Positions 13,204 to 37,079 of a stretch of 64,000 nt of DNA are shown here, in pieces; positions within the stretch are counted from its first letter, which is position 1; each line of letters starts with the position of its first letter. The stretch is taken from the NCBI GenBank assembly GCA_951406725.2, contig OX597823.1:17360001-17424000 (forward strand). The letters run 5' to 3'. Both the position numbers and the translations under genes were made by a program. A model generated the notes under the pieces. The model was not told where the DNA came from. It searched no databases and saw nothing but the letters and a program-made list of their open reading frames with translations. Source of the DNA: Octopus vulgaris. Taxonomy: Eukaryota.

Positions 13204-13324
13204 AGCAGGATGGTGTGGAAACCCGCCTTAATCATCAAGCATGCTTGGTGGTGTTGCCGCGTTGATTGCCGATGGCCCGACCATACAACATGTTGAATTT
13301 GGTTGCAGCGACGACCTGACAATT

Positions 13325-13500
13325 CTTTTATTCTTTTACATGTTTCAGTCATTTGACTGTGGCCATGCTGGAGCATCGCCTTTAGTCGAGCAAATCGACC
13401 CCAGGACTTATTCTTTGTAAGCCTAGTACTTATTCTATCGGTATCTTTTGCTGAACAGCTAAGTTACGGGGGCTTAAACACACCAGCATCGATTGTCAAG

Positions 13501-13535
<35 letters not shown>

Positions 13536-13690
13536 ACACGACAGACTTCTTTCAGTTTTCCTCTACCGAATCCATCACAATGCTTCAGTCGGTCCGAGGC
13601 TAGAGTAGACAACACTTGCCCAAGGTGCCATGCAGTGGGACTGAATCCGGAACCACGTGGTTGGGCAGCAAACTTCTTACTACTTAGTCA
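13325..13690 (-). mobile_element. SINE family B
   Basis: Reverse complement of the family B body and tail. Confidence 0.85.
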
Positions 13691-14410: not shown

Positions 14411-14594
14411 CGGTCCCGGCTTAGTACACATAGGCGTGCTCTTACACGAAACGTCGTAACATTAGTGCTGGCTCTTAAAAATCTCTCTCTCCCTCTCACT
14501 CACCCCCTCTCTCTCTCTCTATCTATCAATAATGCATATATATATATTTATATATATATATATACACCATAAATAGTATATCTGTACAAAATGA

Positions 14595-15007
14595 ATAAAA
14601 TAAGGGCAAAAGAAAAAAATTCTAATGCCAAATAGTCGGATATATTTGGAGTACTTAGGTCTGCTCATGACTTAGTGCTTGCTTTTTCCATGGGTATGAG
14701 TAAGTATTTCATTTATGCCTTACGTGTTTATCGCTGAGGAGGAGAAAATTATTATGAATTAACTCTGAAATTGGGACCAATACGGTAATAACGGAATTTT
14801 TTAAAAATTTCTATTTGCTTCTTTTGAGACACGTGTTAATAGTGATAAATTATAATTGGTTATTGACAATTTGTCTATTTTCGGCATATTTCGCATTAGA
14901 ATTTTTTTCTTTTGCCCTTATTTTATAAGTTATTTATAAATTTAACCTTTTAAAGGTATTTTTTTATATGCTGGCCATTGATAACATTTTTTTTGAAAAA
15001 TTTTATC

Positions 15008-15012
<5 letters not shown>
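14595..15012. mobile_element. fold-back element in (TA)n carrying a hammerhead; homologous to 36770-37055
   Basis: Perfect 34-bp inverted arms 14595-14628 and 14893-14926, TA tracts on both sides. Confidence 0.75.
14728..14788 (+). ncRNA. type I hammerhead ribozyme motif, canonical core
   Basis: Stem I TTATCG/CGGTAA; CTGAGGA 14734-14740; stem II GGAG...CTCT; GAAA 14767-14770; stem III TTGG-GA-CCAA; AUA cleavage triplet (cut after 14782). Confidence 0.8.
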
Positions 15013-15062
<50 letters not shown>

Positions 15063-15069
<7 letters not shown>

Positions 15070-15228
15070 TTCGAGACAAAACCACTATTTTGCAAAACAA
15101 ACAAGGAAAGACTTAATCAATACATAAAATTTTAATAGAAAGTATTTACTTTCTATTAAAATTTTATGTATTGATTAAGTCTTTCCTTGTTTGTTTTGCA
15201 AAATAGTGGTTTTGCCTCGAATTAATAT
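15063..15228. mobile_element. near-perfect hairpin element in (TA)n
   Basis: ~82-bp inverted arms with one mismatch and a 2-nt loop at 15145-15146. Confidence 0.75.
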
Positions 15229-15341
15229 TATATAATATTTTACTATAAAATTGGATTTAATCCTAAATCTGATTTTTTCCCTGTAAATTTGGATTTATTC
15301 CCTAATATTTATTATTATTATATATATATATATATATATAT

Positions 15342-15474
15342 TTGCTAACCAACCACATGGTTCCAGGTTCAGTCCCACTGCGTGGCATCTTGGGCAAGTG
15401 TCTTCTGCTATAGCCCCGGGCCGACCAATGCCTTGTGAGTGGATTTGGTAGACTGAAACTGAAAGAAGCCTGTC

Positions 15475-15544
<70 letters not shown>

Positions 15545-15745
15545 TTGTGTTTGTCCCCCTAGCATTGCTTGACAACCGATGCTGGTGTGTTTACGTCCCC
15601 GTCACTTAGCGGTTCGGCAAAAGAGACCGATGAATAAGTACTGGGCTTACAAAGAATAAGTCCGGGGTTGATTTGCTCGACTAAAGGCGGTGCTCCAGCA
15701 TGGCCGCAGTCAAATGACTGAAACAAGTAAAAGAGTAAAAGAGAG
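15342..15745 (+). mobile_element. SINE family B (5'-truncated)
   Basis: Family B core and tail. Confidence 0.9.
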
Positions 15746-25200: not shown

Positions 25201-25264
25201 GGTCATTAGACTGCTGAATTCTACAAGTTTTTTTTTTTCTCTCTCTGTTTATTTTCTCTTATTC

Positions 25265-25300
25265 CTTTCTGTTGAAGAGCGTAGGCTCGAAACGTAAAAG
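25265..25300 (+). ncRNA. minimal hammerhead motif, A6U variant (Penelope-type)
   Basis: CTTT-CTGTTGA-A-GAGC-gtag-GCTC-GAAA-CG-TA-AAAG: 4-bp stem I, 4-bp stem II, palindromic ACGT stem III, GUA triplet. Confidence 0.65.
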
Positions 25301-25589
25301 ACTCTCTCTGACGGCCAAAAGGGAGAAAAGAATGCCAAAAAGAAACAATAAGCTCAAATTAAACATAAGGCGTACAGAGAGATCATTCGGACACTCAAGA
25401 ATACAAAGACATTCGTATCACAAACGAATTCCAGATGGATCTGCCGAACGACCTGGAGGGAGACTATGCAAACAATGTGCAGATTAGGTTGATAGGACAA
25501 GAGCGGAAGGCGGTGAGATGGTCTGATTCAAGCTAGAAAGTGATTTCTCACCCTTGTGTGAGTCGGTGGCCCTTATATGTTGTATTTGA

Positions 25590-36746: not shown

Positions 36747-36769
36747 TATATATATATATATATATACTT

Positions 36770-37055
36770 CTAATAGGATAAAATATTTTTCCCCCCAAAA
36801 TTCCATTTGGCCAGCATATTAAAGTACCTTTAAAGGTGAACATTATAAGCAATTATAAACAAGGGCAAAGGAAAAAAATATTTCTATGCCAATATACTGA
36901 GGATAGACTTTAAATCGTCAATCATCACATTAAAATATTCATTCACTATGAATACACGTCGTACTGAAATCGAGGGAGGCAAGCTAACAGAATTTTTGTT
37001 CTCAACATATTGGCATAGAAATCTTTTTCTTTTGCCGTCGTTTATAATTGTTTAT
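36770..37055. mobile_element. fold-back element in (TA)n, same family as 14595-15012 in opposite orientation
   Basis: Inverted arms ~36845-36901 and 37001-37055. ATAGGATAAAAT...GGCCAGCATAT...TACCTTTAAAGGT...AAGGGCAAA aligns to the reverse complement of 14880-15012. Confidence 0.75.
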
Positions 37056-37079
37056 GTATATATATATATATATATATAT

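Follow-up and report, generated by a model that had tools for sequence, protein, structure and literature searches.

A conserved hammerhead ribozyme in an old, protein-free octopus repeat that was probably inserted by a Penelope-like enzyme

Non-LTR retrozymes of animals are known from corals, mussels (350-390 bp) and the axolotl (HHR_Amex2), and as they are presented in the sections of PMC7229834 drawn on here they are non-coding, AT-rich repeats of 170-400 nt in long arrays, with one type I hammerhead per unit, a stem I of 6 bp and a stem II of 4 bp. For metazoan hammerheads, cleavage as a dimer through a palindromic stem III is established (PMC4209133; PMC7229834; PMC6765202), and it has been described for axolotl retrozymes in particular, HHR_Amex2 having a weak stem II base and being expected to cleave better as a dimer (PMC7229834). 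In Xenopus, retrozymes co-occur with Penelope-like elements, whose enzymes have been proposed for them, and it has been argued that retrozymes are non-autonomous Penelope derivatives (Li, Clavereau and Pollet 2026, 10.64898/2026.07.22.740005). Penelope-like elements themselves leave partial tandems, inverted 5' copies and tails with a bias towards (TA)n (PMC8557442), and the tail has been explained by two sites at which reverse transcription starts internally (PMC11167929). In vitro, the enzyme of the anole Poseidon element PAc used uncleaved RNA as its main substrate and treated both strands alike, according to the same source.

The repeat family described here, from the genome of Octopus vulgaris, is judged from genome sequence to be an animal non-LTR retrozyme. 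Composition, stem lengths and the single type I hammerhead per unit are those of the retrozymes in PMC7229834, and as in HHR_Amex2 the base of stem II is weak and better cleavage is expected of a dimer; in contrast to them, as far as that account describes them, the unit is 477-500 nt long, most insertions are dispersed and comprise 0.5-1.5 units instead of long arrays, and stem II bears a second hairpin. With Penelope pseudo-LTRs (PMC8557442, PMC4209133) and PAc (PMC11167929), in the parts of these papers used here, the repeat shares partial tandems, 5' truncation, an inverted 5' copy, a tail, not always present, that spans two start sites, insertion targets that are (TA)n or rich in AT, and a palindromic stem III, whereas it carries no frame for a reverse transcriptase (RT) or endonuclease, its tail is about 85 nt instead of 30-40 bp, and stem III has its full 3-4 bp where the pseudo-LTRs have a minimal one. 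While the link to Penelope-like elements in Xenopus is, in the portion of that report considered here, a likeness in sequence to pseudo-LTRs, it is an insertion footprint in the octopus, where no parent element was found among the coding loci compared. It is very probable that the locus holds a conserved hammerhead in an old, truncated, protein-free repeat of about 480 bases, likely inserted by a Penelope enzyme and predicted to cut efficiently only as a pair.

The hammerhead lies in a stretch of 64 kb, called the window in the following, and its parts, all on the forward strand, are these:

14728-14788, forward: type I hammerhead with a near-palindromic stem III, read from the sequence and from covariation of homologues
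14728-14733 with 14783-14788, forward: stem I, 6 bp, one of them G-U
14734-14740, forward: CUGAGGA of the core
14741-14744 with 14763-14766, forward: stem II, 4 bp, with an extra hairpin beyond
14767-14770, forward: GAAA
14770-14773 with 14778-14781, forward: stem III
14780-14782, forward: AUA triplet, with the predicted cut after 14782
14770-14781, forward: self-complementary stem III, predicted at −12.3 kcal/mol as a duplex of two molecules and at +0.5 as a hairpin
14723-14793, forward: hammerhead plus distal stem I (CG at 14723-14724 with CG at 14792-14793) past a 3x3 internal loop

The initial annotation had claimed a complete motif, and CUGAGGA, GAAA and AUA together with three pairable stems are indeed read in the sequence as it described them. 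The core agrees with C3 U4 G5 A6 N7 G8 A9, G12 A13 A14, A15.1-U16.1 and H17. Stem II, which carries an AA/AA loop and the second hairpin on top, is closed by G10.1-U11.1 in place of the usual G10.1-C11.1, a pair that is highly conserved among hammerheads in the part of PMC4209133 used here. When both strands of the window were scanned, the hammerhead descriptor matched only once, and among dinucleotide shuffles it matched none of 60 at the same stem lengths and 3 of 60 at relaxed lengths; Rfam reported no hammerhead at the site, neither at the gathering score nor at E up to 10. As a single strand, the segment has a minimum-energy fold other than the hammerhead, which is placed 1.8 kcal/mol above it by nearest-neighbour energies that leave out tertiary contacts and Mg2+. 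Read together with its homologues, the segment 14728-14788 is a genuine, conserved type I hammerhead, for which cleavage is predicted.

The stretch belongs to a dispersed repeat, for which a search of 2.8 Gb in about 30 large contigs gave 3492 first-look candidates, the best copies being 90-94% identical; a 29-nt hammerhead pattern matched exactly at no fewer than 498 sites, its reversed control at none. From loci with more than one unit, the head-to-tail unit is 477 nt, or 500 nt in the oldest subfamily, and it is non-coding, with a GC content of 30-33% and a longest ATG frame of 81-84 aa. Three subfamilies, A, B and C, were sampled with 30 loci each (90 in total), and 20 further pattern loci revealed subfamily D; the loci are the best matches to their queries, so that end counts are biased, most for C and for the Penelope families, and the arms of B were mapped on the A reference. 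Main arms exceed one unit in 25 of the 90 loci, so the unit closes on itself, and two hammerheads in the same direction are found in loci L013, L028, L056 and L072, while the window copy has one. Subfamily A includes the window copy, B (about 85% identical) was reached via a neighbour in L013, and C (about 70% identical) through window positions 36766-37060, where an older, two-armed C insertion lies on the minus strand with one end of each of the two kinds described below and is truncated short of the hammerhead. Among best matches, copies within a subfamily differ pairwise by a median of 7.8% (A), 7.9% (B), 11% (C) and 6.6% (D), six overlapping loci having been left out here as well as in the comparison of shared variants and the stem III tallies below.

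Circular folds of the unit gave z-scores for self-pairing of −1.3 (A) and −2.75 (C), each from 30 shuffles and from decayed copies. Among 24 sequencing runs, all of them contigs, none that contains the unit is recorded as RNA. Contigs from four runs, which are guessed to be RNA, cover the whole of the compared stretch; as contigs cannot reveal a pile-up of starts or ends, this coverage speaks neither for nor against expression. A B-type hammerhead variant dominates single deep contigs on L008:1589-1698 in runs X5 and X6, which belong to two studies and are likewise only guessed to be RNA, with a depth of 294 of about 490 in X6; this variant could be one expressed source locus. The idea of an intron was rejected: the GTAAGT at 14700-14705 of the window, about 35 nt before the core and kept in A to D, was considered as a splice donor, but a downstream AG is differently placed in A/B and in C and lost in the window copy, and none of the five joints in contigs of the runs guessed to be RNA starts at this GTAAGT.

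Selection has acted on the ribozyme fold in the past, since the core is retained in four subfamilies and each of the three stems carries compensatory changes. Stem I reads UUAUCG/CGGUAA in A and D, UUAUCA/UGAUAA in B and UCUCUA/UAGAGA in C, stem II is GGAG/CUCU, AGAG/CUCU, GGGR/UCCC and GGGG/CCCC in A to D, respectively, and in stem III of B a C-G replaces a U-A. The pair 10.1-11.1 is G-U in most of A, A-U in B and G-C in most of C and D. In an alignment of 67 A and B copies, from which 4 of 71 had been left out beforehand as partial hammerheads, 94.8% of the cells are paired and 7 of 22 pairs show two-sided changes. For 24 copies of all four subfamilies, picked by hand for near-intact cores, the values are 95.6% and 10 of 22, and slid structures are paired to 29-44%, controls that are inflated by kinship, just as the compensatory changes amount to a handful of independent events because the subfamilies are related. 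A lack of core conservation in homologues had been named at the outset as the observation that would speak against the motif; 72 of 93 copies have an intact core (26/34 in A, 32/34 in B and 14/25 in C, 8 of 101 rows having been dropped first), and the stems covary. Only N7 varies freely within the core, the two distal pairs of stem I are kept in 22-23 of 23 distinct copies, and the 3x3 loop in stem I and the 2x2 AA/AA loop in stem II are conserved. Covariation in the aligned copies backs the type I arrangement, in which stem I is open and the core is surrounded by three helices.

The sequence around the hammerhead is made up as follows:

14638-15015, forward: direct arm, a 5'-truncated copy of about 0.8 of the 477-nt unit, subfamily A, reaching the distal fixed end
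14595-14634, reverse: inverted 5' arm, covering positions 104-144 of the unit as counted from the cut and stopping close to the proximal fixed end
14635-14637, no strand: three-base junction between the arms
14893-14926, forward: segment of the direct arm that is complementary to 14595-14628 of the inverted arm
15014-15066, no strand: (TA)n microsatellite at the 3' end, the usual target of the family
14536-14564, no strand: outer (TA)n run, separated from the inverted arm by 30 bp

The perfect 34-bp arms (14595-14628 and 14893-14926, with 264 nt between them) are as initially described, and they extend to 40 bp with one mismatch. The 30 bp between the outer (TA)n run and the inverted arm are absent from every other locus retrieved. 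Within the sample, an inverted arm is present in 48 of 90 loci, its length ranging from 23 to 432 bp, and in 85 of 90 the 3' end of the main arm lies at one of two fixed points, about 150 and about 235 nt after the cut and about 85 nt apart, in front of (TA)n; none of the 90 main arms ends at the cut site itself. Where both outer ends of a two-armed locus are at fixed points (n=30), 29 of 30 loci have one of each, and the same is true of 17 of 18 such loci in A and B, the subfamilies whose sampling could capture either end (binomial P 7e-5); the remaining 18 two-armed loci have at least one end elsewhere. The window locus obeys this one-end-per-arm rule, its near end being 6 bases short. Partial tandems, 5' truncation, the inverted 5' copy and a microsatellite target are the footprint of Penelope-type insertion, whereas the tail is longer than the 30-40 bp that Penelope-like elements have at one end, and the fold-back is likely the scar of an insertion by a Penelope-like enzyme. 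The initial annotation had given the fold-back weight as the setting of the ribozyme, which is not supported: the arm is an inverted 5' piece of the unit and differs in length among loci, and inside the fold-back a hammerhead fold is predicted to be less probable.

Other repeats lie close by. Just past the (TA)n run, at 15063-15228, there is a near-perfect hairpin with 82-bp arms and a 2-nt loop, which is a repeat family of its own with 572 candidates; a copy in L092 has a flank like window 15229-15325 on its other side, plus TA ends. Long inverted matches between 13324-13672 and 15341-15742 are repeat copies that flank the locus, of a repeat that we take to be SINE-like.

Next in likelihood to the preferred reading is that these copies represent 5'-truncated stubs of pseudo-LTRs from an autonomous Penelope-like element, the coding copies of which have been lost or missed, so that there would be no independent retrozyme RNA. 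Its appeal lies in a family that is linked to a coding element and leaves an equal footprint, its copies being mostly stubs too, and in the fact that most genomic Penelope hammerheads are single truncated motifs according to the part of PMC4209133 used here. The coding element in question (L154 990-4907, G000:C5:50454989-50458906) is a Penelope-like element with an RT/GIY-YIG-like frame of 806 aa behind a type I hammerhead that has a long stem II and a palindromic stem III. Pfam named no domain in this frame, which matches the RT of the young family described below in BLASTP (25%, E 1e-10), and it is presumably an RT, to judge from this match and from its motifs. This family has 3188 candidates; in 24 of 25 loci the copy stops at +154, before (TA)n, 10 of these 24 also have an opposite arm whose end lies between +31 and +42, and the tail is about 112 nt. 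A related hammerhead was seen in L216, beside another coding copy.

A second, very young Penelope-like element (L146 2001-6473, G000:C6:117392500-117396972) forms tandems of 4.47 kb with copies 96-99.8% identical, encodes an RT plus a weak GIY-YIG by Pfam, and has, near 5765 of L146, what looks by eye like a minimal hammerhead, with a CUGUUGA core (A6 to U). It has one 3' end (8/8), and there were no inverted arms in 30 loci, a sample biased towards tandems. A short match (86%) to its hammerhead end lies at window 25237-25303. As a source of the enzyme the L154 family is the better candidate of the two, since it leaves the same footprint of two ends, an opposite arm and (TA)n.

No coding parent of the unit was found. 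In 39 loci, and in a second set of 22 that shares two of them and so adds 20, the unit has no significant likeness to coding elements or to the hammerhead ends of these, strong matches within coding loci being separate insertions of the repeat itself. A motif at the proximal end that is shared with the L154 family is not significant, since equally high scores came from 41 of 300 shuffles. In L002, L027 and L047 the repeat lies next to Penelope-like frames, which were considered as the parent and rejected, as they look like separate insertions that share TA targets. An RT plus GIY-YIG reading frame is found neither in the unit nor in the 64-kb window, and in none of the 90 loci nor of the 20 pattern loci is the repeat followed by a coding frame of its own. 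Past the distal end the copies of four subfamilies run not into a coding element but into the start of the 477-500-nt unit, as the 25 of 90 arms longer than a unit show. It is unlikely that the copies are stubs of a coding element.

The preferred reading, an independent retrozyme, includes a prediction for its ribozyme that comes from modelling and from stem III: efficient cutting is expected only where two hammerheads of this family come together. All four subfamilies have a self-complementary stem III, and in a monomer the loop closed by its innermost pair would have just two bases (A, B, D) or a single one (C). Nevertheless this pair is kept in 36 of 37 copies of A, 33 of 34 of B and 11 of 11 of D, and in C it has changed from G-C to A-U in 24 of 32 pattern matches, some of which are spurious (in these tallies one broken B copy is counted with A and one with C). 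The conservation and compensation of a pair that no monomer could form counts in favour of a dimer. Two copies of 14723-14794 co-fold without constraint into the geometry of a double hammerhead, at −33.9 against 2 x −12.1 kcal/mol, an energy gain that is ordinary in that 39 of 200 shuffles match it; a B copy does the same and a D-type copy does so in part, whereas no clean co-fold into double hammerheads was obtained for 11 C copies.

A monomeric ribozyme in the window that is presented by the fold-back and cuts a host transcript running through the locus is less likely still. The intact core, the small distance of the fold from the energy minimum and all 13 proximal pairs, which can be formed in the window copy as in 17 of 34 A copies, would allow it, and retrozyme monomers of mussel and coral cleave (PMC7229834, in the part used here). 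Against this, the arms vary freely among loci, and the predicted probability of the hammerhead fold falls to 2e-5 within the fold-back from 0.004-0.005 locally; medians across the subfamily copies are 0.0005, 0.003 and 0.0001, and a Penelope hammerhead reaches 0.006, so that these values, uncalibrated and low in almost every copy, serve to rank contexts and are no proof of inactivity. The stem III hairpin would be unstable, the pair at 10.1-11.1 is G-U, a C-to-A change seen in none of 42 other A tracks breaks a pair in the extension of stem II, and even as dimers 8 of 9 Xenopus retrozymes failed to cleave in the portion of 10.64898/2026.07.22.740005 considered here. The window copy has 22 differences from the subfamily A majority in 371 positions, another of which lies in the loop of stem I and is shared by 1 of 41 tracks. 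It had been proposed as the best candidate here for activity, which is true in so far as it is the only hammerhead in the window, but it has no tandem partner, and the younger-looking copies of subfamily D have the canonical G-C pair. Being solitary and 0.8 unit long, with G10.1-U11.1, two nearly private changes in the stem regions and a palindromic stem III, it is not a prime candidate, and there is no sign of function at the locus. Most likely the window copy is an inert fossil, which may still cut in the tube as a dimer.

A MITE-like DNA transposon with terminal inverted repeats and a hammerhead-like string by chance, as suggested by inverted arms that flank a short non-coding interior near TA runs, is hardly credible, since the arms vary between 23 and 432 bp, 42 of 90 loci lack an inverted arm of more than 22 bp, the direct arm goes 89 bp past the right-hand repeat, and the stems covary.

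For the retrozyme the following course can be proposed. Active source loci would be transcribed into RNA of more than one unit, in which two hammerheads would pair via stem III and release a monomer that is possibly circularised. A Penelope-like RT/GIY-YIG protein would nick (TA)n, and reverse transcription would begin internally at one of the two sites, about 150 or about 235 nt after the cut. If both DNA ends prime, each would do so on a different site, and two truncated cDNAs would be joined back to back; the window locus, with its 378-bp arm and its inverted arm of 40 bp, would be such a product. As template, a circular intermediate and a tandem linear transcript are equally plausible: divergence between the arms or laps of the same insertion is close to that from other loci (8.3% against 9.0% for inverted and 10.1% against 9.7% for tandem copies), and shared variants are concordant within insertions in 108 of 162 cases for inverted and 67 of 121 for tandem copies, the expectation being about 0.5. 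In L064, L069, L076, L080 and L090 the main arm starts 4-13 nt before the cut, inside stem III (5 of 30 C loci), which may be bias, as the query favoured short arms. That the whole represents a long-lived cephalopod lineage of retrozymes, with a hammerhead that works only as a dimer and a Penelope-like enzyme that primes on both cut strands of (TA)n, strictly using the nearer start site on one and the farther on the other, is a plausible proposal, tentative and a shade short of probable.

In a search of the main texts of openly available papers, no description of a retrozyme from octopus or any cephalopod was found; the main text of an octopus repeat annotation (PMC13282606) has no ribozyme or retrozyme, and its supplements may list such repeats. 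The window locus itself matters little, as decayed copies like it number in the hundreds to thousands. The family, however, offers two testable handles on the mobilisation of animal retrozymes. The one-end-per-arm rule is a sharp prediction for reverse transcription of the Penelope type, set against the absence of a strand difference for PAc in vitro in the part of PMC11167929 used here, and if it is true of the L154 family as well, it would name a candidate for the enzyme, while the series of subfamilies reveals which features of the hammerhead selection has kept.
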